A stretch of 50,428 nt of DNA, from IMG/VR virus record IMGVR_UViG_2909278081_000001. One strand, given 5' to 3'. The translations under genes and the position numbers were made by a program. Under the pieces are notes generated by a model that did no database searches, was not told the origin of the DNA, and saw only the letters and a list, made by a program, of their open reading frames with translations. Each line of letters starts with the position of its first letter. Position 1 is the first letter of the stretch. The DNA is from a virus. Its lineage: Duplodnaviria; Heunggongvirae; Uroviricota; Caudoviricetes. Shown here one piece after another: positions 1 to 30,108 of the stretch.

Positions 1-405
1 ATGGATCAGGTTGTTGTTTTTCAAAAGATGTTTGAGCAAGTGAGAAAAGAGCAAAACTTCTCCTGGTTTTATTCAGAATTAAAACATCACCGTATTGCAC
101 ATTACATTTATTACCTGGCTACGGATAACATCAGAATTATTACTCACGATGACACGGTTTTGTTATTAAGAGGAACCAGGAACCTGTTAAAAGTTAGTAC
201 GACCAAGAACCCTGCTAAAATAAAAGAGGCCGCATTGCTTCATATTTGCGGAAAATCAACATTTCGGGAATACTGTTCAACACTGGCAGGCGCGGGCGTT
301 TTCCGGTGGGTTACTGATGTTAATCATAACAAACGCAGTTACTACGCCATTGATAATACGCTTTTATATATTGAAGATGTAGAAAACAATAAACCATTAA
401 TCTAG
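1..405 (+). CDS. ycgX: host DUF1398-family protein (YcgX-like), 134 aa
   Basis: Complete ORF starting at ATG at position 1; translation matches my recollection of E. coli YcgX, which neighbours iraM. Recalled, not searched. Confidence 0.6.
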   Translation: MDQVVVFQKMFEQVRKEQNFSWFYSELKHHRIAHYIYYLATDNIRIITHDDTVLLLRGTRNLLKVSTTKNPAKIKEAALLHICGKSTFREYCSTLAGAGVFRWVTDVNHNKRSYYAIDNTLLYIEDVENNKPLI

Positions 406-612
406 CTAAAGTTGGAAGCTTAAGAAATGCTTCATAATTCAGTAAGACATTAGCATAATGGAAATAAAAGTGCAGAGACTATCCCTATGGATGATAAATA
501 CTATCTTTTTATTGCCACCCATAAATAATCACCAGGCCAATACTATCAAATTGATATTTGAAATGTGATCACTTGACTTTCTATACGTTATTTTATAACG
601 GTTAACAAATTT

Positions 613-664
613 ATAAAACCAACGGGCGTGCCATACGCCCGTTTCAATACTTAACGCACATGTG
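613..664. repeat. about 50-bp hairpin-containing element, copy 1 of 2 (second copy 1481..1530)
   Basis: ataaaaccaacgggcgtgccatacgcccgtttcaatacttaacgcacatgtg is near-identical to 1481..1530; contains inverted repeat aacgggcgt/acgcccgtt. Confidence 0.6.
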
Positions 665-1107
665 TTTTGGTTTAGTCATCATCCGATTATATGTATTTTA
701 GTCAGGAACGGGTTTAACCATTCCTATATAACTCAAAAATTGAAACCTTATTCTCAGGTCATGCTTATATTCATCATTATCATTATATTAAAAGGCCAAT
801 CATAATGTTTTGCAAATTGGCACAACATAGCATAAAGGCTATGTTTTAATTACAGAATGTTCAGTCATTTGAATGTATAATATTTTAGCTAAACAAATCT
901 AAAACGAAGTGAATAATTTAATGTTTTCACTAAATCTCATTTTGTTTAATCTCTATTGAGATTCCTTGCTTTAAATTTTGTTTTATATAGGTAATGACAT
1001 TAATTTTTAATTAATTTATTTTTTGGGGAGTAATATACACATATGCAAAATCAAGAAATGAACATCCAAATGAACTATATTAAACACCGTGGGATAAGAC
1101 ATAACAA

Positions 1108-1431
1108 ATGAAGTGGATAGTAATTGATACGGTAATTCAACCTACATGCGGCATATCTTTTTCAGCCATATGGGGTGATATGAAAATGATCATCTGGTAT
1201 CAATCTACTATATTTCTCCCTCCTGGAAGTATATTTACACCGGTTAAGTCTGGTATTATCCTTAAGGATAAAGAATACCCTATTACTATTTATAACATCA
1301 CACCATTCAACAAGGATTTATGGATTTTACTCAAAAGCAGTCAAGAGTGTCCTCCAGGAGAAAGCGAAATAACAAATAAATGTTTACATAATAGTTGTAT
1401 TATAAAAATATGCCCATATGGACTCAAGTAA
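1108..1431 (+). CDS. iraM: anti-adaptor protein IraM (RssB inhibitor), 107 aa
   Basis: Translation [12 protein letters not shown]...KICPYGLK matches recalled E. coli IraM/YcgW almost residue for residue; in K-12 iraM lies next to the icdC end of the e14 element. Confidence 0.85.
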
Positions 1432-1488
1432 TGGGCTTCATATAAATATGCTCGACATGCTATTAATAATATCCACATAAATAAAACA

Positions 1489-1512
1489 ACGGGCGTGTTA
1501 TACGCCCGTTTC
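1489..1512 (-). terminator. rho-independent terminator downstream of the icd 3' end (copy 2 of the 50-bp repeat)
   Basis: Hairpin aacgggcgt-gttat-acgcccgtt; on the minus strand it is followed by gttttatttatg, directly after the icd stop codon. Confidence 0.55.
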
Positions 1513-1533
1513 AATATTTAACACATGTAGAGA

Positions 1534-1698
1534 TTACATGTTCTTGATGATCGCATCACCAAACTCGCTGCATTTCAGCAGCTTAGCACCTTCCATCAGA
1601 CGTTCGAAGTCATAGGTTACGGTCTTCGCATTGATTGCGCCTTCCATACCTTTAACAATCAGGTCTGCAGCTTCAGTCCAGCCCATATGGCGCAGCAG
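1534..1698 (-). pseudogene. icdC: isocitrate dehydrogenase 3' fragment (icdC-like), last about 54 codons plus stop; prophage attachment junction
   Basis: Minus-strand translation ...[54 protein letters not shown] equals the Icd C-terminus; homology stops abruptly at about 1698/1699 where AT-rich foreign DNA begins. Confidence 0.85.
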
Positions 1699-2197
1699 TA
1701 TATAAAAACAATAAGTTCAAGTCATTGATATTTAATGATAAAAATTATTTTATTGTCTTTTTATTAGCCAAAATCAACTTTATTCAACCGTTTGATTTCA
1801 TTGACGCTCGTTTTTATTTTGGGGAAAGGTTTTATCTACCATTTATATCAAAATTACAAGTCTACATTTTATTAACATCTCAATACATGTGAGGCCTTGC
1901 AGACCTTTGTGAGACCTTATGTGTCTCAGTTTTGTCCCACCTTTTATTACGACTTGCATAGCCAATGAAGATAAACGTGACGACAAACGGCGCAGCAATC
2001 TTCCTTTCTTTCACACTTTCCCAACCCAGCATGTATACTTTTCTGCCATAACTAAAGTGAATGCCTGTTATGAGCAACAAACAGGCATTAGCGCCGCTAG
2101 CATATTAGCTACCATTCGACTGCCATACTTAAGATTGATTTCTTAAGTATAACCCGGTTTCTAATACTACTTGTATATTCAGCTCTGAGATTCATTT

Positions 2198-5100
2198 TTA
2201 TCTCGTAAAGCTAGTTTTATGACTTCCTGTTAGCTGACTGTCTTCATAATAAAATGCTCCACTAAACTCCTGTCGACCATAATGATGACTTGATGTGAGT
2301 GAGCCCCCTATAACGCCCTTTTCACCTAATAATGTCCAAACGATTTCAAAACCATTGTCCCTTAACATTGTTAAAAATGGTTCTTTTTTAACAAGTAGAT
2401 GCGGCTTTGAAGCATATACAGCTTCAGCTGCAAAGCAAACCATAGTTCCATTTTCATCATTGAAGCTACCCTCTACTTCCCCACTTTTTAATCCCATCTT
2501 TTCAAAGATTAAGTTACTAGGCTTCAAAAAATTCAAAGTTTCTATTTTTGATTTGTCGAACTCCTCTTCCCACAAATAATTAATCGAAGTGACACTAACA
2601 TCAGCAATCTTAGCTCCAGACTCCCGGTCTGTTACCGAAGTCCAGTCAGATCCACCATAATAATCTGATTTAAAAGACTTAAATGCTTCGGACCAATAGT
2701 ACTCCCTATTAAATAATTGGTATCTATCAGTACATTCCGGCATCCACCTGCCCATAAAGTCTTGAGCTATTGCCCAATCTCTAAAATTTTCAAATTCTTC
2801 AACTTTAACGATATAACTTCTGATCTGATACCAAACCTCTTTTCGTGGGTGCCCCCAATCATCGTTTCCAATAATTTTTGGTTCTTTCCATGATGGATAA
2901 CTTTCTAATACTATCCATTCATCACCATTATCATCTTTAACTTCAATAAAAGCATATGAATTAGTTATAGTAGTAGAACTTTTAACCCAGTCTTCATTAG
3001 AGCAAGTCCAATCAAACACTTCATCATTAAGCCACCACATTTCTTTATTGCTTATTTTTTTCGTTCCAGTTTCTTTAAGTAAGATAGTGGGATCTATATC
3101 TCTTACGTAAGGCTCCCATGGCCCTTGGTATGGATTTTCCTTTCGTTCGTCACCATAACCTTCAAAACGAGTAAAATTATCGGCTAGCCTTGCCATGTAT
3201 TCATAATAAGCAATCCATTGGTATTTTTTACCAATCCGTTCTTGGAATGCCTCTCTACGTCCACGTCCAGTTCCTATTTGTTGGTCAAAATTACCATGCT
3301 TCTCCGGATCCCAACCAAGCTCTATAACACGATTGAATATAAATTGTTGAGCTAGTCGAAGATCAAAGTGTTTATCAGTTTCCAGCAGATTATTATTATG
3401 ATCCAGGTATGGCTCTATTTCATTTTCAAACTCACTTAACAGATCGTATGACAATGAATTCTTAAATAATTTCTTGCTCGCCTTTATTTCTTCCTGTGCT
3501 TTTCTACCGACCACACGACCAAATTTAATTCCTTCGCATTTATCATCATAAATGAAAGGATCTGTGGCATCATGCAAATCTTTTTGTTGATCAGTTAGTT
3601 TACATTTGAAAGTTTTAAAAACTTGCTTACGGTCAACAGGGGTTTCATTAAACTTGCAACCAGACCAATCAGAATGATTATAATTTGTTCCAATAGTATA
3701 TCGTGAAAAGTCACCACCTTCCATAATCGAGCTCCAGAGTTCCCGATAAGGTTCTTTATCATAAAGGGACTCTAGTTCCTCTTTTGAAGGAATCTTGTCA
3801 GGCCAAATGCTGTTGTAGGGTGGTCTAGTCTTGGATAATTCAATGCTTTCAAGTTCCAATCCAAGATGATTAGCAAATTCAATAATCTCTCTAGCATAAT
3901 CTCTAAGTAATATATTTGGATACACATACTCAGAACAAAATACCTTTTGGTAAACAGTTTCGGCTAAATATTTTAGTTCTTTAATATTATCAGTTCGCAA
4001 TGTACAGCCTAATGCAACTGCAAATATTCTTTCCCAAACGTAAGGATCATTTACACCATAAAACTTATCAATTATTTTTCTCAATACAGGAATTCTTGGC
4101 TCGAGTAAACTCACTAAAGCCTTGGTTGAGCAATCTCGAAGTTCTCGGTTACTAGAAGTTAAAAACCAGCATAAACTAGTTGCAACTAGCTCGATTGACT
4201 CATCCGAAACGAAGCTTTTGTCTGTTCTGCCCCATGCCCAATCGATTAGATGCCTAAATGCTGAGTCTTCACTATATTTATATTTAAGTTTTGTAGTCCA
4301 AAACGAATCTCGATTTGCCAAAGGGTAATCTTTTAGCCAATCATGCAAGAAATTAGCATTAAAGGGATGGTCAACTAAACCTGAAATAGAGATCACTGCC
4401 TCGAGGAAATGATCAAAACTATCTTTAAATTTAAAAACATGTTCATTGATGAAAGGTCTGATTTTTTCGAAATCAATAGCCTTAATATCTCGCCATATCA
4501 AGCTATCAATAAAGGCTTCTAGTAATTTATGATTATTGCTGAACTCCGGCAGAAGTTCATAAAGCTCTTTTCCATACTTTTCTGGCAATTGAATAGACAG
4601 CGCCTCTACTATTCCCGGGTTTATATAAAAGTCACATTCATCATGAAAATATTTTTTCAGACGACCATCTGACTTAAATTCACTTTCGATATTTTCAACA
4701 TCATTTAATAAAAAATTAACAGTTAAATGATCATCAAACCTTTCAAAAGCCACATGAACTACTTCCTCAGTAGAATTATCATCATTTCTCACTATGCCTT
4801 TAGTCAATAATCCTTCGTCAATCAAGGCGCTGAGGAAGGTTTTATCAGCAACATAATCATTAACTACAGATTGAACCACTGAGTGAGCATCTCTAAGTGA
4901 AATACTATTACGACCAATCTCTAATTTGAATTTTATGATTTCATTGAGAGCATCTTTAACAAGAGGAAAACTGGGATCGAATGCATATTTTCTTGGCGAT
5001 GCTAATGATTTATTTACCCCTTCCACTAAAAAGTTAAAAATATTTGAAATCCCATTAAATCCAACAGGCACTTTGGTTAAACCATTTTTCTTAATGCCTT

Positions 5101-6652
5101 CACACAATAACTTAAGAAATAGAGGGTTTTTAAACTCTGGATTAAGGTTAGGTGATGAAGGCCTCTCTATATTGTAATAATCATAAAATAGACTAACCGC
5201 TTCCAACTCAACGTTCTGAAATCCAATATGTTCATGAATTTCAAAATTATTTCGCTCAACATTCTCATGTGAAATTGTTACATTTCTATATGTTGTTCTG
5301 ACTGACATTATCAGACCAAGCCATTCAAAGCCTCTGATTTCATCGACAAAACTGTTAATATTGTCATTCCAGAATTTATTTCCATTACCTTCATTAATAG
5401 CATCAATAAAAACTAAGACTCTTTTTCCTGTTTTTTTGCCATATAAATTCAGTTTTTCTAGGAATTCACGAGAAGTGATTTTAAGCTGTAATCTCTTGAA
5501 GATTTGTGACCATGGAGATTCATCTGAAGTAAGTTGTTGCCCTAGTATGAGTAGAGAAGGATACCCAGAAGCAATTCGATTTTTAATCACATCAGCCAGT
5601 AAATGAGACTTACCAATTCCAGCTTTTCCTTCGAGAAGTAAGAATGGGTTGTTAGCCAACTTCACTGTTGTTGAATTAATGAATGCACGTAATTCATTGC
5701 ACGCATAGTCAAGTTCCCGAAGCATTCGCAGAGTAGATGAATAATTATCACTGTAATGCTTGGTTTCACCTACTTGTTCTGACTTTTCTCGGAGTTCCCA
5801 CAATATTGATTCCGCTCCGCCAATAGCTGTCTGGCAGCTAGAAACATAGTTATTAAATTTATTTATAGGGACTTCATCTAATTTAGAAAAATTAATTTCT
5901 TGATATATATCAGAAATTTCTTTTAAGGACTGGTCTATTTCAGATAATTGTGAGGAAATTACATCGCAACTATGTAATTTCTTTCCAGTGACCAGAAAAC
6001 TATCTATATGCGAATAAAATATTTTAGAAAAATTATTAGTTCTACCGAGACCATCAAATATCTCTGCTATTTCTAGCTTTACGTTGAGTTCGGGTGTGTA
6101 TCGGCCTCCCAAGTCAGCTATTGCTTGACTACTTTTCTCATTTAACCAATCATCACTCAAGTGAAAAGTTAGTTTCTCATCTATAGACCGCAAAACAAGT
6201 TTAATTTGAATAAGCTCTTCATTAATATCGAATATTTTTTCTTTATAAGTTTCTTCGATATGTAGCTTTTTTAACTTCGAACAATTATTTATTTTTAACG
6301 ACAACATCCCATAAAAAAGGCTGAGTTGTTGTTGAGTTGGGGGAGTGACGCTTGGATATTCTTTGAACTTGTCTAATAACATCTCTTTGTCAGGGAACTC
6401 TTTAAAAAGGATGTGCTCATTCAACATCTCAAACAATGGTTTAGAATGATAAAATGGAATTGCTCCACTTTCTACTGGATATGTTTCTTCAAACTCAATT
6501 GCCGTCTCTTCAATTAGTTGATATAATCTATCCACATATTTTTCTGTGGGGAATAATGCTTTCTTAATCCAACTATATCCTTCTTGAGAAATGAATTGAT
6601 CAATAAGTTTAGTTGCTACATAAGTTGCCACTGTAATTGATATGGGTTCCAT
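2198..6652 (-). CDS. large P-loop NTPase, STAND/NACHT-like (1484 aa); candidate anti-phage defence protein
   Basis: Single uninterrupted 4.4-kb ORF, visibly AT-rich. Walker A LLEGKAGIGKSHLLADV about 330 aa from the N-terminus, Walker B-like RVLVFIDAINEG, long Trp-rich C-terminal region. Family assignment is inferred from motifs only. Confidence 0.6.
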   Translation of the reverse strand: MEPISITVATYVATKLIDQFISQEGYSWIKKALFPTEKYVDRLYQLIEETAIEFEETYPVESGAIPFYHSKPLFEMLNEHILFKEFPDKEMLLDKFKEYPSVTPPTQQQLSLFYGMLSLKINNCSKLKKLHIEETYKEKIFDINEELIQIKLVLRSIDEKLTFHLSDDWLNEKSSQAIADLGGRYTPELNVKLEIAEIFDGLGRTNNFSKIFYSHIDSFLVTGKKLHSCDVISSQLSEIDQSLKEISDIYQEINFSKLDEVPINKFNNYVSSCQTAIGGAESILWELREKSEQVGETKHYSDNYSSTLRMLRELDYACNELRAFINSTTVKLANNPFLLLEGKAGIGKSHLLADVIKNRIASGYPSLLILGQQLTSDESPWSQIFKRLQLKITSREFLEKLNLYGKKTGKRVLVFIDAINEGNGNKFWNDNINSFVDEIRGFEWLGLIMSVRTTYRNVTISHENVERNNFEIHEHIGFQNVELEAVSLFYDYYNIERPSSPNLNPEFKNPLFLKLLCEGIKKNGLTKVPVGFNGISNIFNFLVEGVNKSLASPRKYAFDPSFPLVKDALNEIIKFKLEIGRNSISLRDAHSVVQSVVNDYVADKTFLSALIDEGLLTKGIVRNDDNSTEEVVHVAFERFDDHLTVNFLLNDVENIESEFKSDGRLKKYFHDECDFYINPGIVEALSIQLPEKYGKELYELLPEFSNNHKLLEAFIDSLIWRDIKAIDFEKIRPFINEHVFKFKDSFDHFLEAVISISGLVDHPFNANFLHDWLKDYPLANRDSFWTTKLKYKYSEDSAFRHLIDWAWGRTDKSFVSDESIELVATSLCWFLTSSNRELRDCSTKALVSLLEPRIPVLRKIIDKFYGVNDPYVWERIFAVALGCTLRTDNIKELKYLAETVYQKVFCSEYVYPNILLRDYAREIIEFANHLGLELESIELSKTRPPYNSIWPDKIPSKEELESLYDKEPYRELWSSIMEGGDFSRYTIGTNYNHSDWSGCKFNETPVDRKQVFKTFKCKLTDQQKDLHDATDPFIYDDKCEGIKFGRVVGRKAQEEIKASKKLFKNSLSYDLLSEFENEIEPYLDHNNNLLETDKHFDLRLAQQFIFNRVIELGWDPEKHGNFDQQIGTGRGRREAFQERIGKKYQWIAYYEYMARLADNFTRFEGYGDERKENPYQGPWEPYVRDIDPTILLKETGTKKISNKEMWWLNDEVFDWTCSNEDWVKSSTTITNSYAFIEVKDDNGDEWIVLESYPSWKEPKIIGNDDWGHPRKEVWYQIRSYIVKVEEFENFRDWAIAQDFMGRWMPECTDRYQLFNREYYWSEAFKSFKSDYYGGSDWTSVTDRESGAKIADVSVTSINYLWEEEFDKSKIETLNFLKPSNLIFEKMGLKSGEVEGSFNDENGTMVCFAAEAVYASKPHLLVKKEPFLTMLRDNGFEIVWTLLGEKGVIGGSLTSSHHYGRQEFSGAFYYEDSQLTGSHKTSFTR

Positions 6653-7183
6653 GATTAGCTTCTTCCAACAATTAAATTTTTTACCAAGCGTTTATGCTTT
6701 CCAATAATTATTACATCTCACCGTAAAACATATTTATATGGTTTTAAACCTATCTGTAAATCTTGACACCTTGGCAAGAACCTAATCCTACATTTTAATA
6801 TCAATCTATATAATATCGCCAGCGTCATAATAATCGGGCTTGTCATAGTTAAGTATTCGCCTCCGATATCCCAATGAGATAAGTAAGTCATAAGTGTTAT
6901 AAATGAAAAGGTTTCATTTTTCAAAGAGTTATTATGATGGAATATTATTCAAAACGCAATGTGGCTGAAACGAGTCTGAATCTAACATCCGCTCCTAGCA
7001 CATAGCAGCCATAGAGACAGTGGCGTAAAGTCATGGAGGATCGGTGGGAGAAGGTGCAAATCCTCCCCTACAAAAAATACGTAAAAACGGTAACGGCTGG
7101 AAATCATTCAATACTCGCACTATCGAAAGTTAACCAGCCAGCCGCAGTATCCTATCATGACAAGTTACTGCGGCTTTTTATAT

Positions 7184-7501
7184 TTAACGGATCAACAGCC
7201 AGACCAGCAGACATGCCACCACCGGCACAGCAAAATCCATCAGGCTTGCCACATCCCATGCACGAGGATCAAAACCGCCCCACCACGGCATGTTAATCCG
7301 CTTGCCATGCCCGAACATTTCAATCCAGCGATATTCTGCCTGGGTATGTTCACGAGCGATGAAGAACGTACAACCAGCTATCGCACCGTAAGCCCAGTTT
7401 CCGGTAAAAAGACCAACCAGTACCTGCGCAGCCACAGCACAAAGCGCGTGAAGGAAAGGTGTTATATCCATTTTCATCCTACCCAATAAAACGGGACTCA
7501 C
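7184..7501 (-). CDS. small hydrophobic protein, likely inner-membrane; function unknown
   Basis: ORF with two hydrophobic stretches (AVAAQVLVGLF, VPVVACLLVWLLI); true start may be Met9 or Met11; sits between the distal fiber gene and the NTPase gene. Confidence 0.45.
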   Translation of the reverse strand: MSPVLLGRMKMDITPFLHALCAVAAQVLVGLFTGNWAYGAIAGCTFFIAREHTQAEYRWIEMFGHGKRINMPWWGGFDPRAWDVASLMDFAVPVVACLLVWLLIR

Positions 7502-7513
7502 GGCCCCTTAATA

Positions 7514-8554
7514 TTATTTAGACGCAAGCGCCGCCTCAATTGCAGATAATCTTTGTCTTAATTCTGCGTTTTCTTCTTCCAGTGCTGTTATTCTGTCGTC
7601 GGACTCTCTGGCTACCTGAACAAGCAAGCCAGTAACACCAGAATAATCTACAGTGTAATACCGTTCACCTTCTTCGCCTTCAGATCCGCTACCACCGTCC
7701 CTATATTTTATCGTAGAGCCTACGGACTCTGGAATTGCTTCTAAGGCTTCCTGTGCGATAACACCAGCGTAAGGCATCCCGTTTTCTTTAAGCGTGTATG
7801 TATAACCATTCATCTTACGGATGCGATTGGTTGCATTATCAATCACCTGAATATTATCTTTCAGGTCTCGGTCAGAGGTCTGGTTAAATGCGGTCGCTTG
7901 ACATGCACCATTAACAGCAAATGCATATGTGTCATCTGTTTGTTTTTGACCGAAGAATATAAAAGCCCCACCATCTACACCAACTTCATAAACAACCGGA
8001 CGGCTGGAGTTGCCCCACAATTTAGCAGTAACGCCAGCGTGAGCGGTTCCCTGTGTGTTTAGTGTCATGGTCGAACCATGATTAGCATATTTGATCTGTA
8101 ATGTGTCTGTATAATCAAATTTAATCAGGGCATTATCTACACGATCCCCATAGGACATGAGGCATTTACCCATTTTCAAATAACCAGCAGTGCCAGGGAA
8201 AATTAAAGTTCCTCCGTAAAGATCACTAAAGTCCCAAAAGATACCTTTTGTCCCGTTATGTGTGACGATCCTCGTCATTGTATCTTTAGTACCATCAATA
8301 TTTTTTCTTGTATATATATCACTATAAGCGTTTTCCGTTTCACCAGTCTTATTTGACAAATGCAGCTTACCGCTGAATATAGTTCCAGTTGTTGGCAATG
8401 TTTTTTGTTCATAGATTACATTGCAATAACCATTCCATGTTGTTTTATTGTCTACATAAGATTTTGTTGCATAGCTTCCTTGATCAGTTTTTAGTTTACT
8501 AACATCGGATTTTAGCGTTTTGATGTCATCAGGAATTACTGTTTTTGTAACCAT
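7514..8554 (-). CDS. tail fiber/tailspike-like protein with C-terminal intramolecular-chaperone (S74-type) domain and coiled-coil tail
   Basis: C-terminal DRDLKDNIQVIDNATNRIRKMNGYTYTLKE... resembles the auto-cleaving chaperone of fiber/endosialidase proteins, then ALEEENAELRQRLSAIEAAL coiled coil. By motif, not lambda Tfa. Confidence 0.6.
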   Translation of the reverse strand: MVTKTVIPDDIKTLKSDVSKLKTDQGSYATKSYVDNKTTWNGYCNVIYEQKTLPTTGTIFSGKLHLSNKTGETENAYSDIYTRKNIDGTKDTMTRIVTHNGTKGIFWDFSDLYGGTLIFPGTAGYLKMGKCLMSYGDRVDNALIKFDYTDTLQIKYANHGSTMTLNTQGTAHAGVTAKLWGNSSRPVVYEVGVDGGAFIFFGQKQTDDTYAFAVNGACQATAFNQTSDRDLKDNIQVIDNATNRIRKMNGYTYTLKENGMPYAGVIAQEALEAIPESVGSTIKYRDGGSGSEGEEGERYYTVDYSGVTGLLVQVARESDDRITALEEENAELRQRLSAIEAALASK

Positions 8555-8566
8555 TGTCTTACTCCA

Positions 8567-8836
8567 TTAAGCCCATGTCCTTACATGCTGATCTGTCGTA
8601 ATGAAAGGCATTAAAGAAGATATGTTTTTACTGCCATCAACAATCCTCATGTTTACGAAAAAACCACCGCGATCAATGCCTGTACATCTTTCGTTTTCTG
8701 GCTCCTCGTAATCGATAATGCAGCCAATAACATCAACAAGAACCCCATTTTCTTCTTCAAGACTGAACAGGCCACTGTCATATACAATTGCGTTAAACTG
8801 TTCTCTGTTATCGAATCGTAATGTTATATCCCGCAT
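8567..8836 (-). CDS. hypothetical protein, 89 aa, translationally coupled to side tail fiber gene
   Basis: Start overlaps the stf stop by 1 nt; acidic; no recognised motif. Confidence 0.45.
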   Translation of the reverse strand: MRDITLRFDNREQFNAIVYDSGLFSLEEENGVLVDVIGCIIDYEEPENERCTGIDRGGFFVNMRIVDGSKNISSLMPFITTDQHVRTWA

Positions 8837-11199
8837 TATACGTATTCCTTAAGCTGCGTATCTGACAATGCTCTGTTCCAGAAACGGAGGTTTTTTATAT
8901 GACCATTAAGGTGTCGTAATCCTGTCGTCGTTTGCCCCCCGATACGAATCACGGCAGCTTCACGAATATATTTCCATACTGTTTTTGTTTCTGTGCTTAT
9001 ATGCTTATTTGCAAATGAGCATGTCATGCCGTCAGCCTTAACCCTGAATCCCATAACGAGATCTCTTACTCCGCATGACTCATATACACGTCGGTTAGCC
9101 CCGCCTATATCGCAATACGAATAACCATCCTGACTAATAGTTCCAGAAGAACCAAACCCCATAATAAATGGGCCCCCGGACTGGTGATTTTCTGAATCAA
9201 TGACACGCGGTGCAGCATTATGAGAAATAAACCAGTTTTTATGGACTTCCACCATGAACGTAAAAGGCATGGTATACATATTTTTCATCAGCGGAAATTT
9301 ACATAAATCTGATGCACGAGTAGCTGGCTCTGTTGTCGTTATGATAAAGGAAGTTGCACAAGCACCATACTCAAATTGCGGGGTGGTTACTTCTATCCAG
9401 TCACCTGTTGCAAAAGACCCCACAGCTCTGTCGGCTGCAATTTGCAACTGCGTACCAACCATTCCCCATTCTGGCAGACATTTCAGGGTTGCCTGAAAAT
9501 ATATCCATCCACTACCTGGATCGATTTCAAAGTTTGCTGTTAATAGCTGGGCATTACCACCCGTAATTTGTAGTTCATGGGTCTGTAATGACAAATAGGC
9601 GTCACAAAGGAAAGTGTATCCTTCCGAGTTATACCGTTCAAAACGGATACGTGCGCGAACATTGAGATCACTTCTTACCCTGAACGACGCGGTAACATAC
9701 GGACCTTTACTGTACTGATCATCGCCAGTCACATCTATGCCTTTATTACCAGCAACTGTGCATATATTTCTCCCTGTTGTCGTTCCTGCTATGTCGCTTC
9801 CTACTGTGAAACGTCCATATTTAAACTCAAATTCATCTGTTGATGATGTTACAGATATACCACCGCTTTTATTCCAGGCATCAGGATTAAAACTATTTAC
9901 GAACATGTTTGTTCGCTGATTCTCTATCAGCAAACCATATTTTTCAAAACGAGGAACGTTATTCCCTGCCACGGTAATATGCCCGGACTTATCAATATAC
10001 GTTGCAGATGAAGCCCGGCTAAATTGGCATATGCCATTAACAGGCATTGTTATTTCATCACTGCCGATGGTTATTGTTTTATAGCCCGGGGCATACCCTG
10101 TTATCGCTTCCAGAGAATCATTCAAGGGTAGCCAGATATCAGGAAGCGGAGGGACAGAAGCAGGATCAGCGGCATCTTCTGCAATCCGGGCTGCATTCTC
10201 TGCTCTTGTTGCGGCTGACGTTGCTTCTGTCTCGCTGGCTGCTGCTTTTGTTTCACTCGTCTTTGCGTTAGTTTCACTGGCTTTTGCAGCTTTTTGGCTA
10301 TTAGCTGCCGCTGTTGCAGAACCGGCCGCCGCGCTCTCGCTTTCAGCTGCTGCAGCCTGGCTGTTTTTCGCCGCAGTTTCACTGGCTTTGGCATTCGTTT
10401 CGCTGGTTTTCGCTGCCGTCTGGCTGGACTTTGCGTTAGTTTCACTCGTCTTCGCTGCTTTCTGACTGTTAGCCGCAGCAGTTGCTGATCCGGCTGCTGA
10501 AGTCGCAGAACCAGCTGCAGCACTCTCGCTTTCGGCTGCTGCATCCTGACTGCTTTTCGCTGCAGTTTCGCTGGCTTTGGCATTCGTTTCGCTGGTTTTC
10601 GCTGCCGTCTGGCTGGACTTTGCGTTGGTTTCGCTCGTCTTTGCGGCTGTCTCGCTGTTTTTCGCGTTGGTTTCTGATTTTTTGGCTGCTGTCGCGGAGT
10701 TTGCCGATGCAGTCTGTGAGGTCGCTGCCGCCTGTGCGCTGTTAGCTGCATTCGTTTCTGAGGTTTTCGCCGCGTTCTTCGATGATGCCGCTGCAGTTTC
10801 GGATTTCTTTGCCGCCGCTGCGCTCTGAGAGGCGGCTTCGGCGTTGCGTGCCGCTTCTTCCACCATTTCCTGAAAACGGCGCAATGCCTCCGGCATGACA
10901 TCATCTTCCGTCATGGCACCGAGAAAATCATTCAGCGTCCCCGGACTGGAACCTTCATAGACGGTAATGGTCCCAACATGTGATGGCTGAGAACCCTCAA
11001 TCCACAGGATGACGCTGTACTGACCATACTCAACGTCCATACTGTAACGCCCGGCTTCATCAGGATTTTCAGATGCCACCGTGTTCACCAGTACCGTGGT
11101 GCTGTTACGCTTTGCCTTCAGTTGAATAGTGCAGTTCTGTATTGGTTTTCCCGCACCATCTTTCAGCACACCTGAGATTTTTACTGCTGCCATATCCAC
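8836..11199 (-). CDS. stf: side tail fiber protein (Stf-like), 787 aa, mosaic
   Basis: N-terminus AVKISGVLKDG...QNCTIQLKA matches lambda Stf; Ala/Ser/Thr-rich repetitive middle; C-terminal half unlike lambda Stf as recalled. Confidence 0.85.
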   Translation of the reverse strand: MDMAAVKISGVLKDGAGKPIQNCTIQLKAKRNSTTVLVNTVASENPDEAGRYSMDVEYGQYSVILWIEGSQPSHVGTITVYEGSSPGTLNDFLGAMTEDDVMPEALRRFQEMVEEAARNAEAASQSAAAAKKSETAAASSKNAAKTSETNAANSAQAAATSQTASANSATAAKKSETNAKNSETAAKTSETNAKSSQTAAKTSETNAKASETAAKSSQDAAAESESAAAGSATSAAGSATAAANSQKAAKTSETNAKSSQTAAKTSETNAKASETAAKNSQAAAAESESAAAGSATAAANSQKAAKASETNAKTSETKAAASETEATSAATRAENAARIAEDAADPASVPPLPDIWLPLNDSLEAITGYAPGYKTITIGSDEITMPVNGICQFSRASSATYIDKSGHITVAGNNVPRFEKYGLLIENQRTNMFVNSFNPDAWNKSGGISVTSSTDEFEFKYGRFTVGSDIAGTTTGRNICTVAGNKGIDVTGDDQYSKGPYVTASFRVRSDLNVRARIRFERYNSEGYTFLCDAYLSLQTHELQITGGNAQLLTANFEIDPGSGWIYFQATLKCLPEWGMVGTQLQIAADRAVGSFATGDWIEVTTPQFEYGACATSFIITTTEPATRASDLCKFPLMKNMYTMPFTFMVEVHKNWFISHNAAPRVIDSENHQSGGPFIMGFGSSGTISQDGYSYCDIGGANRRVYESCGVRDLVMGFRVKADGMTCSFANKHISTETKTVWKYIREAAVIRIGGQTTTGLRHLNGHIKNLRFWNRALSDTQLKEYV
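10250..10640. repeat. tandem duplication of about 190 bp inside stf
   Basis: gcagtttcactggctttggcattcgtttcgctggttttcgctgccgtctggctggactttgcgtt at about 10374 recurs nearly exactly at about 10562; encodes ...TSETNAKSSQTAAKTSETNAKASETAAK... twice. Unit boundaries approximate. Confidence 0.8.
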
Positions 11200-11202
11200 T
11201 CC

Positions 11203-11230
11203 ACAAAAAAGCCCGCCTGAACCGGCGGGC
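11203..11230 (-). terminator. rho-independent terminator after lom
   Basis: Hairpin gcccgcc-tgaa-ccggcgggc followed on the minus strand by TTTTTTGTGG. Confidence 0.7.
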
Positions 11231-11257
11231 TGTCATAACACTGTGTTACCTGGCTAA

Positions 11258-11857
11258 TCAGAACTTATAACCGACACCCACGATGAAACCGTCAGTGCGC
11301 CAGTCACCACTGCCAGAACCTTCATAAGCAATATCAATGGCCACGGATTCGGTCGGGTTAAACTGCACGCCAGCCCCCCACGCCAGAGACGTGTTGCTGT
11401 GGCGACCGTCATCACTTCCGGTCAGCACATCGTGCGTTTTCCCCTTGTTGTCAGTTACGCGAAGGTAATCCCCGGAAAAAGTCGAAACACGGCTGTAAGC
11501 CATACCCGCCATCGCATACGCGCTGAACCATTCATTCACGCGCACAGACGGCCCCGCCATCACGCTGAACCAGCGGTTACGCACGGAATCTTCATGCCAG
11601 CGGGTATCGCTGTAACGGGTCAGCTGGCGATTCTTGTCTCCTGCATAGCTGAATGACGTCACCAGCCCCAGCGTATCCGTAAACTCATAACGGTATTTAA
11701 CGTTAATCCCGTTCAGATCATCACTGCCGGGAACGTTGGTCCGGGCATGAAGATACCCCGCGCTCAGCGTGGACTGATGTTCAGATGCCCATGCAGGCGC
11801 ACCGGATACGGCCAGACAAATGGCTGCGGACAAAATGGCGGCATAAAGTTTACGCAT
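11258..11857 (-). CDS. lom: outer membrane protein Lom (Ail/Lom family)
   Basis: Near-identical to recalled lambda Lom (MRKLYAAILSAAICLAVSGAPAWA... ending GFIVGVGYKF); signal peptide present. Confidence 0.95.
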   Translation of the reverse strand: MRKLYAAILSAAICLAVSGAPAWASEHQSTLSAGYLHARTNVPGSDDLNGINVKYRYEFTDTLGLVTSFSYAGDKNRQLTRYSDTRWHEDSVRNRWFSVMAGPSVRVNEWFSAYAMAGMAYSRVSTFSGDYLRVTDNKGKTHDVLTGSDDGRHSNTSLAWGAGVQFNPTESVAIDIAYEGSGSGDWRTDGFIVGVGYKF

Positions 11858-11926
11858 AATTACCTCTCGCTTTTCTGCAATAAAAAAGGCACCATTTCTG
11901 GTGCCCTTATATGGGTTATAACAATT

Positions 11927-14900
11927 TCAACGAATACTGATGCCGGAAGCGGCTTTTTTGGTCACAATCACCGTACAGTCGGTGATATTACCTGCCCATT
12001 GATTGCCTTTATGGAAAACCTTAAACTCCAGAGTGACGCTTCCCCTGCCACTCGGCATATCAATAACCGCACTGTAGCTACCGGGAATGGCCCCTTTAGT
12101 TTCTCTGGATGCGATTAATACACCGTTTTTGCGAACTTCAAAACCATAACCCGTGTATCTTGTACCTCCCGGGTTATTACCACTTCCCGGATCGCTATAC
12201 GCTATTCCGTTAAAGATAATGGGCGGAATAATGATTTGACGGGCAAAGTTATGATCATCGCTGATGGTGACTGTAACCGTCCCGTTTGGCGTTTCCGTGT
12301 TACCCCACGTACCAGCCTGTTTCGGAAATGATTTGGATACAGCTTTAACGAAGTCACCTCTGACCTGAGTCGCCTCCAGCATGCCCTTAATCGTACAGTT
12401 CTGGTTAATCGTGACATTGTTGAGCGTTCCTGAGTTCGCATTCACACTACCACTGATATCCGCATTTTTAGCGGTCAGCTTTCCGTCTGATGTCAGGGAA
12501 AATACCGGAGGACTGCCACCGCTGGTAATGGTGGGGGCTGTCAGGCGCTTCAGGAACACGTCGTTCATGAATATCTGGTTGCCCTGCGCCACAAACATCG
12601 GCGTTTCATTCCCGTTTGCCGGGTCAATAAACGCGATACGGTTAGCGGCAACCAGAAACTGGCTCAGCTTGCCTTCCTCCGTGTCCTCCATGCTGAGGCC
12701 AATACCCGCGACATAATGTTTGCCGTCTTTGGTCTGCTCAATTTTGACGCCCCACATGGCATTCCATTTATCGTTAGCGTCCTTCCACTCTTTCGAAAAC
12801 TCATCCAGTCTGCTGGCGTTATCCTCCGTCAGATCAACTTTTTCCAGCAGCTCTTTACCGAGATGGGATTCGGTTATCTTGCCTTTGAAAAAATCCAGGT
12901 AACCTTCCGCATCATCGCTCGCCCGACCGACGGCCTCCACGAATGCCGATTTGCCAACGGTGTTCACACTGCGGATATAAAAGTAATAATCATGGCCCGG
13001 TTTGATATTGATACTGGCGGCTATCCAGTACAGCGCCGTACCAAGATAGCGGGCTGTGGTTTCAACCTGCCTGATATCGGTAATCCGCTTTTCCGAGAAC
13101 CAGAACTCAAACTGTACCGTCGGGTCATAAACGGCAAGATGCGGCGTGGCGGTTATCTGAAAATAGCCCGGCGTCAGCTCAATCCTCGACGGTGCTGCCG
13201 GTGCGGCAATCCGGAACGATACCGACGCCGGATCGCCCTGCTGCCCCCAGGCATTTGCCGCCCGGACTGTCAGCCTGTAGTTTCCCAGCGCCAGTTGCGT
13301 GAAGCGGTATGTGGTTTCCGTCGTCCGGGCCGTGCTGACCAGCAGCTCACTGCCGTCATCCGCTGTTACGGTCAGACGGAGCAGGAAGCTCACGCCCTTC
13401 ACCACCTTCGGCGTGTCCCAGCGCGCCAGCACCTGATATTCCCCGCTGTCTGCGGTGACTTCGGCGGTCAGGTGCTGCACCGCTGGCGGCGTGACACCAT
13501 TCACCGTGCCGCTCTGGTCGCCGTCAAAGTGCGCCCCGTTATCCACGATGGCTTCTTTTTCCGGTACATGCTGCACGGCAGTGATGGCATACGTGCCGTC
13601 ATCGTTCTCACGGATACTCACACAGCGGAACAGGCGCTGACGCAACGTCGGCAACTTCAGCCCCCACACACTGTATTCTGCAACGCCGTCAGGAACCCGG
13701 TTCACTTTCACCTTAAGTCCGTCGGTGACGGACTGAACCTCCACGCTGACCGGATTACCACTTCCGTCAACCAGGCTTATCAGCGTGGTACCGGAGGATG
13801 GCAGCGTGATTTCACGGTCGAGCGTCAGCGTCCGGGTCTGGCTGTTCACCGCCAGCACGCGACCACCGGTGCTGATACCGGCATAGTCATCATCGCAGAT
13901 TTCAATGACATCGCCCGGTACATGGCGAAGCCCTTCAGCACCCACGCTGAAATCCACGGTCTGCGTCTCCAGCAGTTCCGTTTTAATCAGCCACAGCCCG
14001 GCGCGGTGTGCCTGCCCCCGGCTGGTACAGCCAAAGGCATCCATCTTCGTGACATTACGACCGTAACGGGCAATGGCCTGCGTATCTTCAACAAGCTCTG
14101 TCGCCGTCTCCCAGCCGTTGTTCGGGTCAATCCAGTTCACCTCAACGGCATTATGGCGGTCCTTCAGGGCGCTGAAGCTGTAGCGGAACGGCGCGCCATC
14201 ATCCGGCATCACCACATTACTGCGGTTATAGGTCCACACCTTATCTGATGGTCGGTCCTGCACGAACGTCAGCGTCTGCCCGTTCCATACCGGCATACAG
14301 CGCATCGCCGAGCAGAAATCACTGAGCACATCCCACGCCTTACGCTGCGTGGTCAGGTAGGCATTACAGGTGATGCGCGGCTCCGTGCCGCCAAAACCGT
14401 CCGGCACTGACTGGTCGCAGTACTGGCCGATGACATACAGCGCCCATTTATCCACATCCGCCGCACCAAGACGTTTCCCCATGCCGTAGCGCGGGTGGGT
14501 CAGCATATCCCACAGACACCAGGCCGGGTTGTTGCTGTATGCCGGCTTAAACGTTCCGTCCCAGATACCGCTGTATTGCCGCGTCTGCGGGTTATAGTTC
14601 GACGGCACCTGCAGAATGCGCCCGCGAAGATGATAATTACGGCTCACCTGCTGGCTGCCGAACTGCTCCGAGTCCACCTGCACGCCGACCAGTGCCGTGT
14701 TCGGGTAGCACTGTTTCACATCGATGATTTCGGTGTATGACGACCAGAGCGTTTTGTTCTGCAGCTGGTCTGTGGTGCTGTCCGGCGTCATCCTGCGCAT
14801 CCGGATATTAAACGGGCGCGGCGGCAGGCTACCCACCACCACCGAGGCCAGATACTGCGAGGTGGTTTTGCCCTTAATGGTGATGTCTTTTTCCGTCACC

Positions 14901-15340
14901 CAGCCACCGTTACGTTGTATCTGAACCAGCAGGCGGACTTCCGACGGATTCCTGTCCCCCTTTGAGGTGGTTTCCACCAGTGCCTGCACGCCGAAAGTAA
15001 AACGCAGACGGTCAATGTTTGCCGACGTGATGGTCCGGGTGATCGGCGTGTCATATTTCACTTCCGTACCCAGCACCGTCTCGGATCCGGAGGATTCAAA
15101 ACCCTCCGGCGGTGTCTGCTCCTGCTCACCTGCCCGGAACACCACCGTGACACCGGCGATGTTGGTATTCCCCTCACTGTCCAGCACCGGCGTACTGTTC
15201 AGCAGCACGCTTTTTAATCCATCCACCGGACCTTCTATCGGCCCTTCGCTGATGGCATCGATCACACTCAGTAACTGCGTGGATTTCAGGTTGTCCTTCG
15301 CTTCGCGCGGGGTATGCCCCTTACTGCTGCCTTTACCCAT
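11927..15340 (-). CDS. J: tail tip / host specificity protein J
   Basis: 1137 aa; N-terminus [21 protein letters not shown] matches lambda J; position between lom and I. Confidence 0.95.
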
Positions 15341-15400
15341 TCGTCATGCTCCATAAACGACAAAACCGCCCGCAGGCGGTTTCACATAAAACATTTTGCA

Positions 15401-16072
15401 TCAGCGACCAATCACCACAACCTGACCAGCATCCCCTTCGTCTGCCGTGCTGATCTCCTGAGAAACCACCCGCGACCCCACACGCATTTCACCGTACAGA
15501 ACAGGCAAAACATTGCCCTGGGCAACCATGTTATCCAGTGAGGAGAAATAGGTGTTCTGCTTACCGTTATCCGTTGTCTGTGTGCGGGGAGTTCTGGCTT
15601 TCGGTGCCAGCATCTGAGCCACACCGCCGAGCACCATACTGGCACCGAGAGAAAACAGAATGCCGGTCATACCACCGGCCCCAATGGCTGTCCCCCATGC
15701 TGCAAGGGTGGCTCCGGCGGTAAAGAATGATCCGGCAATGGCGGCTGCCCCCAGGACAATCTGGAATACGCCACCTGACTTGGCCCCGGCGACTCTGGGA
15801 ACGATATGAATCACAGCGCCGTCAGGCAGAGCCTCATGTAACTGCGCCGTTAATCCGGACGTGCTGACATCCTGCCCGGCAATACGTACCTGATACCAGC
15901 CGTCGCTCAGTTTCTGACGAAACGCAGGGAGCTGTGTGGCCAGCGCCCGGATGGCTTCGGCCCCCGTTTTCACACGAAGGTCGATGCGGCGGCCAAATCG
16001 TTGTAAATCCCCGTAAAGGCAGATGCGTGCCATGCCCGGTGACGCCAGAGGGAGTGTGTGCGTCGCTGCCAT
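15401..16072 (-). CDS. I: tail assembly protein I
   Basis: 223 aa, matches lambda gpI as recalled. Confidence 0.95.
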   Translation of the reverse strand: MAATHTLPLASPGMARICLYGDLQRFGRRIDLRVKTGAEAIRALATQLPAFRQKLSDGWYQVRIAGQDVSTSGLTAQLHEALPDGAVIHIVPRVAGAKSGGVFQIVLGAAAIAGSFFTAGATLAAWGTAIGAGGMTGILFSLGASMVLGGVAQMLAPKARTPRTQTTDNGKQNTYFSSLDNMVAQGNVLPVLYGEMRVGSRVVSQEISTADEGDAGQVVVIGR

Positions 16073-16713
16073 TTGTCGGTATACCTCTCTCGTTTGCTCA
16101 GTTGTTCAGGAATATGGTGCAGCAGCTCGCCGTCACCACAGTAAATGGCGGCATGATTCGGCACCGATGAACCAAAACAGCACAGCAGCACATCGCCCGG
16201 CTGCGCCGCTGACAGCGGCACCTGATACAGCCCTGTGGCCTCCAGATTATCCAGATAGAGATTCTGACCGTTACGCCACCAGTCATCCTCACGATGAAAA
16301 TCCGGCATCTCAATCCCCGCCAGATGGTAAGCATCCCGGAACAGCGTGTAACAGTCCGTCACCCCGTGCTCAAAGCGCCGCCCGGTGAGATGCGGCACAC
16401 AGCGGAACTTATGAATCGCCCCCCGGCAGACCAGCCACCACGGCAAATCACTCTGCACCTGCAGTCGCCGGTCGGCCTCACTCAGCCAGGGCAGACCACC
16501 GGGATGGCTGTGCACCAGCGCCACAATCTCACCCTGCATTTCTGCCTGCAGCCAGTCTTCCGGCGACATACGGAAATACGCCTCCGGCTCACCGGAGATA
16601 TTCACGCAGGGGAAATATCTTTCCCCCTCCGGCGTGCTTACCACGAAGCCGCACGACTCCGCTGGCGCACATCGCCGGGCGTGCGCCAGAATCGCTGATT
16701 CTGTCTCTGTCAT
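15970..16713 (-). CDS. K: tail assembly protein K (JAMM/MPN plus NlpC/P60-like)
   Basis: Lambda gpK-like; HSHPGG...SEAD JAMM motif; start boundary uncertain (alternative start at Met49). Confidence 0.85.
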   Translation of the reverse strand: MTETESAILAHARRCAPAESCGFVVSTPEGERYFPCVNISGEPEAYFRMSPEDWLQAEMQGEIVALVHSHPGGLPWLSEADRRLQVQSDLPWWLVCRGAIHKFRCVPHLTGRRFEHGVTDCYTLFRDAYHLAGIEMPDFHREDDWWRNGQNLYLDNLEATGLYQVPLSAAQPGDVLLCCFGSSVPNHAAIYCGDGELLHHIPEQLSKRERYTDKWQRRTHSLWRHRAWHASAFTGIYNDLAAASTFV

Positions 16714-16718
16714 GGGAT

Positions 16719-17417
16719 TTACTGCGAAAGTTTGTTAATGGAAAGGAAGCCGCCAAAGTTGCCGACATTATTGCGGAACTTACAACCGCTCAGGCATTTG
16801 CTGCATTTATCCTTCGTGATATCGGACGTTGGCTGGTCATATTCATCCGCGACCGCCGGACCGTGATAACCGCACTCATCGCCGCGATAGGTCCAGGTGC
16901 AGGTGTTGGCCAGCATGATACGTCCCGGAAAAACAGCGCCGTCCGTTTCCGTCGGCGTGGACAGTACAAAAGAGGCACTCACCGCGCTCAGTTCGCTGCA
17001 CTGCTCAATGCGCCAGCGGCTGATCACCTCCTGCTCCGGATCGGCGTCACTGTTTCCGTTGACGAAGTTCACCGCATCCAGAAAACGGGCGTAAACCTTA
17101 CGCCGGACCACCGTTCCGCCGACCAGACTCTGCAGATCTTCCGCCATCCCGGTGACCATACCGTACAGGTTAGAAACCGTCAGCGTGGGGCGCGTACTGG
17201 TGCCTTTGCCATTCAGTTCAAAACCACTCCCCTGAATGGGATACGGCTGATACTGTCGCCCCTGCCAGGTGACCGGCTCACCTTTTTCGTTCTGCTCATT
17301 ACAGAAAAAATAACGTTCTCCACCGACCTCTGTCAGATCGATTTCCCAGAGCACCACGCTGGCCGACTGCTCCGCACGGGTGCATTCATTCAATGTTTCC
17401 TGCCGGATATCCTGCAT
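16719..17417 (-). CDS. L: minor tail protein L
   Basis: 232 aa, matches lambda gpL (MQDIRQETLNECTRAEQ...). Confidence 0.95.
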   Translation of the reverse strand: MQDIRQETLNECTRAEQSASVVLWEIDLTEVGGERYFFCNEQNEKGEPVTWQGRQYQPYPIQGSGFELNGKGTSTRPTLTVSNLYGMVTGMAEDLQSLVGGTVVRRKVYARFLDAVNFVNGNSDADPEQEVISRWRIEQCSELSAVSASFVLSTPTETDGAVFPGRIMLANTCTWTYRGDECGYHGPAVADEYDQPTSDITKDKCSKCLSGCKFRNNVGNFGGFLSINKLSQ

Positions 17418-17746
17418 CAGTTCACCACCTGTTCAAACTCTGCGCTGAACTCAACACGCAGCATACTGACCCGCGACGACCATTTTGCGCAGGTCACCTT
17501 TATCTGCCGCCACTCATAAGGCGGCGTCCACAGAAAGGATTTCCAGCCACCGTGCTCAGCCAGAAACGACTCCAGCGCCGTGGCCTCCCAACGGGGAACA
17601 GAAAGCGTCACGCTGTACGTTTTCAGGTCGGCATTCAGCCCGGCAGGCGCTCGCTGGGAATAGCCATCACCAAAGCGCACCTTTCTTACAGAAGGGGCCG
17701 AAGCCACATCCATACCGGGTTTCACTTTCCAGCGGAAGGTTTTCAT
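17417..17746 (-). CDS. M: minor tail protein M
   Basis: 109 aa, matches lambda gpM (MKTFRWKVKPGMD...). Confidence 0.95.
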   Translation of the reverse strand: MKTFRWKVKPGMDVASAPSVRKVRFGDGYSQRAPAGLNADLKTYSVTLSVPRWEATALESFLAEHGGWKSFLWTPPYEWRQIKVTCAKWSSRVSMLRVEFSAEFEQVVN

Positions 17747-20304: not shown

Positions 20305-20737
20305 ACCGGACTCCTCCTGCGATCCCTTCTGATACTGTCATCAGCATTACGTCATCCTCCGTCATGTCCGCCACATCCGGGGAAGCGGGGATAACTTCAT
20401 TCCCGTCCGGGCCAAAGCGGACACCTCCGGCAAGCCCTGCCGCTTTCTGCATCAGCACATCATCTTCAGGCTCTTCGTCAGCCTCGCGCCGGTTCAGCAG
20501 ACTGAAATCCAGCGGATGCATATCCGGATCGCTGAAAAACAGGCTGAGCACGGTGTACGTCAGCCCGGAAAAGTGCATATCCAGCAGAACATCATGAAAA
20601 TAATGGGTACTGTAAAAGCGGTGCCAGTCGGCATACTCCGTGGATGACATCCCGGCAAGCATGGCACGCCAGTCGGGTCGCCCCATCTCACGCGCCAGTT
20701 TCAGGGCAAAACTCAGCTCACCGTCGAACACTTTCCC
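20297..20737 (-). CDS. T: T segment of tail assembly chaperone GT (expressed as G-T fusion by programmed -1 frameshift)
   Basis: ORF in the -1 frame overlapping the end of G; slippery heptamer GGGAAAG at the overlap. Confidence 0.8.
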   Translation of the reverse strand, partial: GKVFDGELSFALKLAREMGRPDWRAMLAGMSSTEYADWHRFYSTHYFHDVLLDMHFSGLTYTVLSLFFSDPDMHPLDFSLLNRREADEEPEDDVLMQKAAGLAGGVRFGPDGNEVIPASPDVADMTEDDVMLMTVSEGIAGGVRYG

Positions 20738-21135
20738 GCAGAAACAGGCTCTGCGGGCCCGGCGTCCTCTGTCTGTTCAGGGGCATTATTCACCACAAAC
20801 TCATACATACCAGACAGCCGGTACACCACGTTTTCAGCATGAGAAATTGCCTCCGTGGGCCAGGTGGTAAGCACTTCCTGCTCAATCTGTTTAACGGCTT
20901 CATTCATGGACGGCATCTGCGTCTTCTGCGGATGGTTATGCCACAGGGACATCGCCACCAGAAACGCGCCGGTTCTGATGGCGTCTTCCACAGTAAACTT
21001 CCGGTTGCTGTCTGACTCCGCCTGTTCTGCCTGCCGTTTCATCAGGGCGAGATGCTCAATGCGCTGCAGGGCTGACAGTTCAGAAAGCGTGACGGTCACA
21101 CCGTTATGTTCAAATGATTCGGTTTTCAGGAACAT
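20713..21135 (-). CDS. G: tail assembly chaperone G
   Basis: 140 aa, lambda gpG-like, ends ...GKCSTVS. Confidence 0.95.
   Translation of the reverse strand: MFLKTESFEHNGVTVTLSELSALQRIEHLALMKRQAEQAESDSNRKFTVEDAIRTGAFLVAMSLWHNHPQKTQMPSMNEAVKQIEQEVLTTWPTEAISHAENVVYRLSGMYEFVVNNAPEQTEDAGPAEPVSAGKCSTVS
20731..20737 (-). other. programmed -1 ribosomal frameshift slippery site (G to GT)
   Basis: Plus-strand ctttccc, i.e. GGGAAAG on the coding strand, within the last codons of G as in lambda. Confidence 0.8.
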
Positions 21136-21150
21136 CGCTGACTCTCCGGA

Positions 21151-21891: not shown

Positions 21892-21898
21892 AGCGTCC

Positions 21899-22868: not shown

Positions 22869-22879
22869 ACATCCCCCTT

Positions 22880-23233: not shown

Positions 23234-23244
23234 AGCGCCTCCCG

Positions 23245-23643: not shown

Positions 23644-23684
23644 GGACTCCTCCACAAAGAGAAAATGGCCCCGAAGGGCCATGA

Positions 23685-24710: not shown

Positions 24711-24765
24711 AAAAAAATCCCGTAAAAAAAGCCGCACAGGCGGCCTTTAGTGATGAAGGGTAAAG

Positions 24766-25098: not shown

Positions 25099-25107
25099 AA
25101 ACATCCC

Positions 25108-26427: not shown

Positions 26428-30108
<3,681 letters not shown>

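Follow-up and report, generated by a model that had tools for sequence, protein, structure and literature searches.

The DNA analysed here (the window, 50,428 nt, IMG/VR virus record IMGVR_UViG_2909278081_000001) carries near its left end the gene iraM, bracketed by two copies of one short hairpin-bearing element. IraM is an anti-adaptor that shields RpoS from RssB/ClpXP, and the locus raises the question of how this gene came to lie between the two copies. A sequence-only reading of the window had proposed that the iraM segment is the remnant of an earlier integration at icd, with duplication of the flank. That proposal was supported by strains with a single copy of the element, by phages that carry it, by icd codons preserved in a divergent haplotype and by the prophage-type cargo between the copies. 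We consider it probable, at roughly three chances in four, that the two copies (copy A, distal to icd, and copy B, next to it) are icd terminators left by an icd-integrating element that then decayed, with iraM as its last surviving gene. The coordinates of the features are given in Table 1.

Table 1. Features at the left end of the window, with the basis of each assignment
Feature	Position	Strand	Basis and remarks
ycgX (DUF1398 family)	1..405	+	Pfam DUF1398, E=1e-47; annotated ycgX in near-identical genomes; chromosomal, on the far side of copy A
ymgL small ORF	458..568	+	Annotated ymgL at the equivalent position in strain VCSW7
Flank just distal to copy A, about 40 nt (TATACGTTATTTTATAACGGTTAAC...)	575..612		BLAST and MAFFT comparisons
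Copy A, icd terminator element	613..664	-	Hairpin 621-643; minus-strand T-run 620-611; repeat and exact pattern match
Bracketed segment	665..1480	+	GC 21-35%; ymgK-like ORF (805-849), iraM promoter region, 22-codon uORF, iraM
22-codon uORF overlapping the iraM start	1043..1111	+	Translations; alignment with the WL297 ymgB-like gene
iraM	1108..1431	+	95% identical to proteins named IraM; annotated iraM in matching genomes
Copy B, icd terminator element	1481..1530	-	Hairpin 1488-1510, then GTTTTATTTA on the minus strand
Displaced 3' icd fragment (icdC in K-12)	1534..1697	-	164 nt, about 54 codons; ends at the junction GGCGCAGCA|GTATAT
Lambdoid prophage now in icd	1698..50428	-	Lambda-type integrase 49286-50428 (+), Pfam integrase domains

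A direct-repeat search of the window reported a single family for the two copies. They lie on the same strand, with 616-658 matching 1483-1525 at 38 of 43 nt (88%), and their start-to-start spacing is 867, against an initial estimate of about 870 bp with the first copy on the other side of iraM. One 2-nt indel (AACGCACATGT vs AACACATGT) extends the similarity to about 50 nt, the limits entered in Table 1. The perfect 9-bp hairpin AACGGGCGT-5 nt-ACGCCCGTT was present in both copies, and the 29-nt pattern of hairpin and tail had two exact matches in the 50-kb window compared with none in 100 shuffles. The near-identity and the shared hairpin described in the sequence-only reading thus held on measurement. 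When the copies were aligned together with their flanks, as that reading had suggested, the alignment was confined to these 50 nt; the flanks of copy A and copy B within the window gave Smith-Waterman scores no better than shuffles.

On the minus strand both copies were predicted to be intrinsic terminators, each with a 9-bp stem containing six GC pairs, a 5-nt loop and a T-rich tail (GTTTTATTTA and GGTTTTATAA). The fold energies were -16.8 kcal/mol for copy A and -20.7 kcal/mol for copy B (z=-4.2). Copy B begins about 4 nt past the icd stop codon (1534-1536) and is identical to the terminator behind the intact icd of prophage-free strains, for example K-12 ER3413. The repeated element is thereby shown to be the predicted Rho-independent terminator of the minus-strand icd. 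The earlier suggestion that the second copy directly follows the icd stop and looks like the icd terminator was correct, with the amendment that the icd found there is only a displaced 3' fragment. Copy A, of the same polarity, is an orphan, with no minus-strand gene upstream of it within 665-1480. Its hairpin is broken in K-12, and copy A failed the hairpin pattern in 9 of 13 iraM-bearing IMG/VR contigs; judged from these sequences, copy A is decaying, as expected of a relic.

The terminator hairpin has also received insertion sequences. In E. coli EC16 (4617-6040 of the locus) the left edge of the icd terminator hairpin is the exact insertion point of two tandem IS200C copies, and the hairpin loop is inverted from GTTAT to ATAAC. 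Other strains have IS200C in the interval from ycgX to iraM, and IS200 appears to target the terminator hairpin.

To the right of copy B the window contains the end of icd and then the present prophage. A 50-aa ORF in the icd fragment is identical to the C-terminus of Icd, and the VCSW7 annotation describes it as an incomplete isocitrate dehydrogenase. Matches to intact icd end at 1692-1697, and icd is cut by the prophage at 1697/1698. In eight IMG/VR contigs with an integrase 95-100% identical to that of the window, the element and the icd 3' end come about 70 nt after the integrase. Because these relatives have the element behind their integrase, a complete icd and a third copy of the terminator are expected, by this comparison, just beyond the window end. 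The order in an O157 prophage is excisionase, integrase, about 60 nt, element and icd, and its similarity to the window begins at the left edge of the element.

Some other features of the record were seen on this side. A 1484-aa ORF (window 2198-6652, minus strand) lies just inside the prophage junction; its sole domain match is a weak one to the nSTAND6 NTPase and, given its place and length, it is a candidate for a prophage-borne anti-phage defence gene. Like the window, many provirus contigs of IMG/VR begin exactly with the ATG of ycgX. The provirus boundary call takes in about 1.7 kb of host DNA (ycgX, iraM and the icd fragment) beyond the true junction, and provirus callers can thus overshoot the icd attachment junction.

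No integrase, attachment core or phage backbone gene was found inside 665-1480, and the segment was for this reason filed as a decayed relic and not as an element. A GC profile of the segment, which had been proposed as a check, was low; it discriminates little, because the ycgX side is equally low. A Pfam scan of IraM gave no match, though precomputed annotations list PF11183. The motif TTTTGGGGA upstream of iraM (1018-1030) resembles TTTTGGGGAA, which is repeated beside phage integrases; the simplest interpretation is that it serves the uORF as ribosome-binding site. In some strains iraM is truncated by an IS1 insertion (loci 3489-4454 and 1400-2200). In one of them prophage tail genes adjoin the IS1-truncated iraM, which points to an IS1-mediated deletion.

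The link between copy A and icd came from a divergent haplotype, which was reached through an IraM variant of 73% identity and is present in 19 complete genomes, for example WL297 (11879-18864 of the locus). The order in WL297 is ycgX, copy A, about 190 nt, a region homologous to window 660-1079, a complete ymgB/ariR-like gene (with a Pfam YmgB match) and iraM with its own terminator. These are followed by trkG, an IS5 fragment, a 455-aa ORF, copy B and icd, so that the bracketed DNA amounts to 6.3 kb. Copies A and B of WL297 were 82% identical over 67 nt, through the stop codon, and copy A carries ACATATTCTTGAT, an exact in-register 13-mer of the last four icd codons. The in-register icd codons show that the ancestor of this copy A was a terminator joined to icd. 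Copy A of the window has no recognisable icd coding remnant, and the link thus depends on the WL297 haplotype, which in principle might stem from a separate event. A search to the right of copy A in the window for a hidden remnant of icd coding sequence gave Smith-Waterman scores no better than shuffles. A resemblance of GATTATATGT and GATTACATGT at 681-690 was attributed to chance; its WL297 counterpart lies 200 nt off the real icd relic of that haplotype.

Prophage DNA was also found between the WL297 copies. The trkG block together with a partial Rz lysis gene is about 90% identical to Rac-type prophages, the block is oriented as expected of a lambdoid prophage in icd, and the flank of copy B shares 87% identity with the attachment module of e14. 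No integrase was detected in the bracketed DNA of WL297, the prophage material being limited to fragments (trkG with part of Rz, and IS5).

Compared with the window haplotype, the divergence of WL297 starts inside ycgX; identity is 99% in bluR and drops to about 61% close to copy A, and the haplotype was probably introgressed from a distant Escherichia lineage. Since the two haplotypes are so diverged, the two-copy arrangement is old. In the alignment the window haplotype looks like a derivative of a WL297-type structure by three deletions. One would have removed the icd relic and about 200 nt, another most of the ymgB-like gene, leaving the 22-codon uORF, and the last the DNA from iraM's own terminator up to copy B, with the ends joined at an AAAAC tract. 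The first 11 codons of the uORF are homologous to the start of the complete WL297 ymgB/ariR-like gene (MQNQEMNIQMN vs MQSQGMYFEMN), and by this alignment the uORF is a relic of the 5' end of such a gene. The overlap of the uORF with iraM (ATGA) could couple its translation to that of iraM.

Strains without iraM were sought among 5426 complete E. coli genomes, 3842 of which match at least 80% of ycgX-iraM-icd. In 1037 genomes (about 19%) iraM is absent, and the ycgX/ymgL flank leads to exactly one terminator copy and then to the icd 3' end. Examples are SCU-111, DE17, CFT073 and an O25:H4 strain, and ST131-type strains are included; in SCU-111 and DE17 the ymgL flank runs straight into the single copy. 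The missing block corresponds to exactly one 867-bp repeat unit. The comparison with other strains, another check suggested at the outset, thus revealed a precise empty site, with one terminator copy joined to both flanks. CFT073 has been reported to be without iraM (PMC4045071), in agreement with its place in this set. The clean absence of iraM in about one fifth of E. coli, including CFT073 and the ST131-type strains seen here, is explained by this allele.

The genes beside and between the copies have relatives in phages. IraM homologs of 55-73% identity lie between the Q antiterminator gene and holin or nanS genes in lambdoid prophages of E. coli and E. albertii, beside stx2AB in Stx prophages and, once, on a virulence-plasmid-like contig. 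The phage homologs sit on the strand opposite to the late genes. A search for phage DNA similar to the non-coding DNA of the iraM segment, in the window or in WL297, found none; the iraM coding sequence alone matches. Judged by its relatives, iraM is a typical lambdoid cargo gene and of putative foreign, phage origin. As in other lambdoid cargo genes or 'morons' (iraL, the Stx-phage iraM-like gene, bor, lom), the homologs occupy the classical cargo slot from Q to the lysis cassette. Chromosomal iraM, in contrast, is without any phage context and is wired to host regulation. Published work has shown it to be regulated by PhoP and H-NS. The iraL gene of CFT073 was placed on a genomic island (PMC4045071).

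Three further observations concern these cargo genes. The IraM homolog of a Stx2 prophage (69% identity, 111 aa) lies between stx2B and a nanS-like esterase gene, and some phage records already annotate the Stx-prophage homolog as iraM or anti-adapter. In an E. albertii lambdoid prophage (8001-8405 of the locus) a YcgX-family (DUF1398) gene of 70% identity has the Rz lysis gene on one side and the small terminase gene on the other. Because this prophage carries such a gene, ycgX also belongs to a phage cargo-gene family.

The icd/icdC duplication by integration of e14 (and phage 21) was reportedly described by Hill et al. in 1989 and by Wang, Whittam and Selander in 1997. In e14 the element occurs as the variant AACGGGAGCG-TTA-CGCTCCCGTT (K-12 W3110, about 32700-32750 of the locus), in which the stem is altered on both arms and still pairs. 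This retention of the hairpin fits a terminator function for the hybrid icd gene. Three TTTTGATAA repeats were seen upstream of the e14 variant and may be integrase arm sites. The e14 prophage has been reported to replace the icd 3' end and to leave the icdC fragment (PMC6379469, PMC13626634). In PMC4045071 iraM was placed 'on the e14 prophage'. This is contradicted by the K-12 sequence, in which iraM is found outside the e14 junction, on the far side of icdC and copy B. The gene would accordingly be assigned not to e14 but to an older layer.

From these observations we infer the following order of events. Temperate phages of the e14, phage 21 and lambdoid types enter the icd 3' end and bring a substitute icd 3' end with its terminator beside the integrase. 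Because the incoming phage brings its own icd end, the old icd 3' end and terminator are stranded at the far junction. Copy A, at the ycgX/ymgL flank, would be the host terminator stranded by an earlier integration, and copy B the one supplied by the incoming element, presumably a lambdoid prophage. That element would then have lost DNA by deletions until about 820 bp was left, comprising iraM, its promoter region and two tiny ORFs. A later prophage, that of the window, would have entered the same site and pushed copy B and the 164-nt icd fragment outward.

Other origins of the repeat pair were weighed against this sequence of integrations. The element might be a dispersed REP/BIME or MITE repeat, or the copies might be two independently evolved look-alike terminators. 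Like REP/BIME sequences it is a GC-rich imperfect palindrome in an intergenic location, and the bare hairpin AACGGGCGT-N5-ACGCCCGTTT, present in 52 stretches in an exact scan of one genome per species in 185,579 species, also arises by chance as a terminator in phyla unrelated to one another. However, the similarity of the copies goes past the stem into the loop-proximal bases and the 20-nt tail (TTTCAATAYTTAAC..CACATGT), which are absent from the chance matches in other phyla. The full element (loop and 20-nt tail) was recovered in the same scan from Escherichia and from two contigs labelled Sutterella and Veillonella, each time beside the icd 3' end, and both of these contigs carry E. coli-type flanks. 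With a 55-nt query the copies per complete E. coli genome had a median of 2 and a maximum of 6, and every full-length copy examined adjoined the icd 3' end or was copy A. REP/BIME sequences number tens to hundreds at unrelated loci, unlike the 1-6 copies per genome here, all tied to the icd 3' end. The sequence-only reading had named a widespread REP-like repeat as the outcome that would speak against it; since copies are few per genome and the full element is confined to icd 3' ends, that outcome was not encountered, and a dispersed or convergent origin is hardly credible. Entry of the iraM segment without phage integration, by illegitimate recombination or by a hairpin-targeting insertion that duplicated about 45 bp, with the phage copies coincidental, is unlikely but deserves more weight. 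It would account for the lack of mobility and phage backbone genes in 665-1480 and of phage matches to the non-coding flanks, and the IS200C insertions at the hairpin edge in EC16 and between ycgX and iraM elsewhere mark the terminator as an insertion hotspot. Yet the repeat of 43-50 nt in the window (about 100 nt in WL297) far exceeds the 2-14 bp of transposon target duplications, and neither terminal inverted repeats at the insert ends (665/1480) nor a transposase was found. Moreover, flank, terminator and icd end make up the WL297 duplication just as they make up the unit carried by phages that integrate in icd, and the WL297 insert holds Rac-like prophage DNA.

A further alternative touches only the direction of the polymorphism and not the origin of the repeats: the iraM-less alleles may be secondary deletions of the 867-bp unit by recombination or slippage between A and B, with the repeats mainly a deletion substrate. 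Besides the size of the missing block, equal to one repeat spacing, this is favoured by the two-copy structure common to two haplotypes 23-39% diverged in the flank, and by iraM-less left flanks that are only about 6% from iraM-plus flanks, interleaved with them and of at least two distinct lineages (SCU-111-type and EC16-type). The left-flank distances were star-like, about 6% among the window, K-12, SCU-111 (empty) and EC16 (empty) and about 33% for WL297, and by parsimony would favour a secondary loss, with recombination between the repeats removing iraM. However, the flank tree can be uncoupled from the indel by the frequent recombination of E. coli. The single copies themselves argue against deletion: they are B-like at all diagnostic positions and never A-like, all with the B-type loop and the B-type ATAT tail. 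None of the 1037 iraM-less genomes has an A/B chimeric copy, the best match to a designed A/B chimera being 98.7%, or 3 mismatches at 3 diagnostic sites. A crossover would thus have been required within the leftmost 11-16 nt every time. B-like, non-chimeric copies fit an ancestral empty site with later drift of copy A, in which case copy A must have gained 3-4 changes since. In E. whittamii and Escherichia sp. E1V33 the terminator lies behind icd with other downstream genes; the YcgX relatives of other Escherichia are paralogs that lie elsewhere or are carried by prophages, and Citrobacter bluR is not near icd. The exact pattern gave no icd locus from E. albertii, E. fergusonii or E. marmotae. 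An ancestral empty site and a secondary deletion come out near even on this evidence, and we hold the latter at a little under even odds.

With integration at icd and later decay as the preferred reading of the repeats, the A/B pair represents the icd/icdC phenomenon in a layer one step older, with decay almost complete, a fresh example of a known phenomenon. The target is that of e14 and phage 21, where a substitute icd 3' end comes with the phage and that of the host, once displaced, stays as a direct repeat; the current prophage shows such a duplication itself in the icd fragment of the window. In contrast to the e14 case, the A/B pair is older, lies outside the present prophage and consists of the terminator part only, without the 160-nt coding part, and of the DNA between the copies about 820 bp, lacking an integrase, is left. 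The arrangement also resembles tRNA-gene islands and decayed prophages with their attL and attR, in which the element carries the 3' end of its target, cargo is left bracketed and island-free strains have one copy. It differs from these in having a protein-coding target and, as the surviving repeat, a transcription terminator instead of a piece of an RNA gene. A literature search gave no paper on the pair of terminators around iraM.

More tentatively, the DNA downstream of icd may consist of layered prophage relics, with terminators as layer markers and with host regulators recruited from the cargo of successive decayed lambdoid prophages; this broader picture is possible but doubtful. Each integration at icd would push the previous phage-supplied icd end and terminator outward (A, B and a third beyond the window), iraM would come from one layer and ycgX/ymgL perhaps from an older one. 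The order and orientation of ycgX and iraM are the same as those of their phage counterparts. A third, older terminator relic was searched for between bluR and ycgX and was not found. By BLAST and MAFFT the flank of about 40 nt distal to copy A is homologous to the icd-terminator flank of E. whittamii, Escherichia sp. E1V33, e14 and WL297 copy B. The flank common to copy A, e14, WL297 copy B and E. whittamii may be ancestral chromosome that phages captured or may come from phages; in the latter case ycgX/ymgL would form part of a still older relic. For iraM, one of three anti-adaptors setting RpoS stability in E. coli, these results would provide an origin at the sequence level, as the last cargo gene of a former icd prophage bracketed by two generations of the icd terminator.
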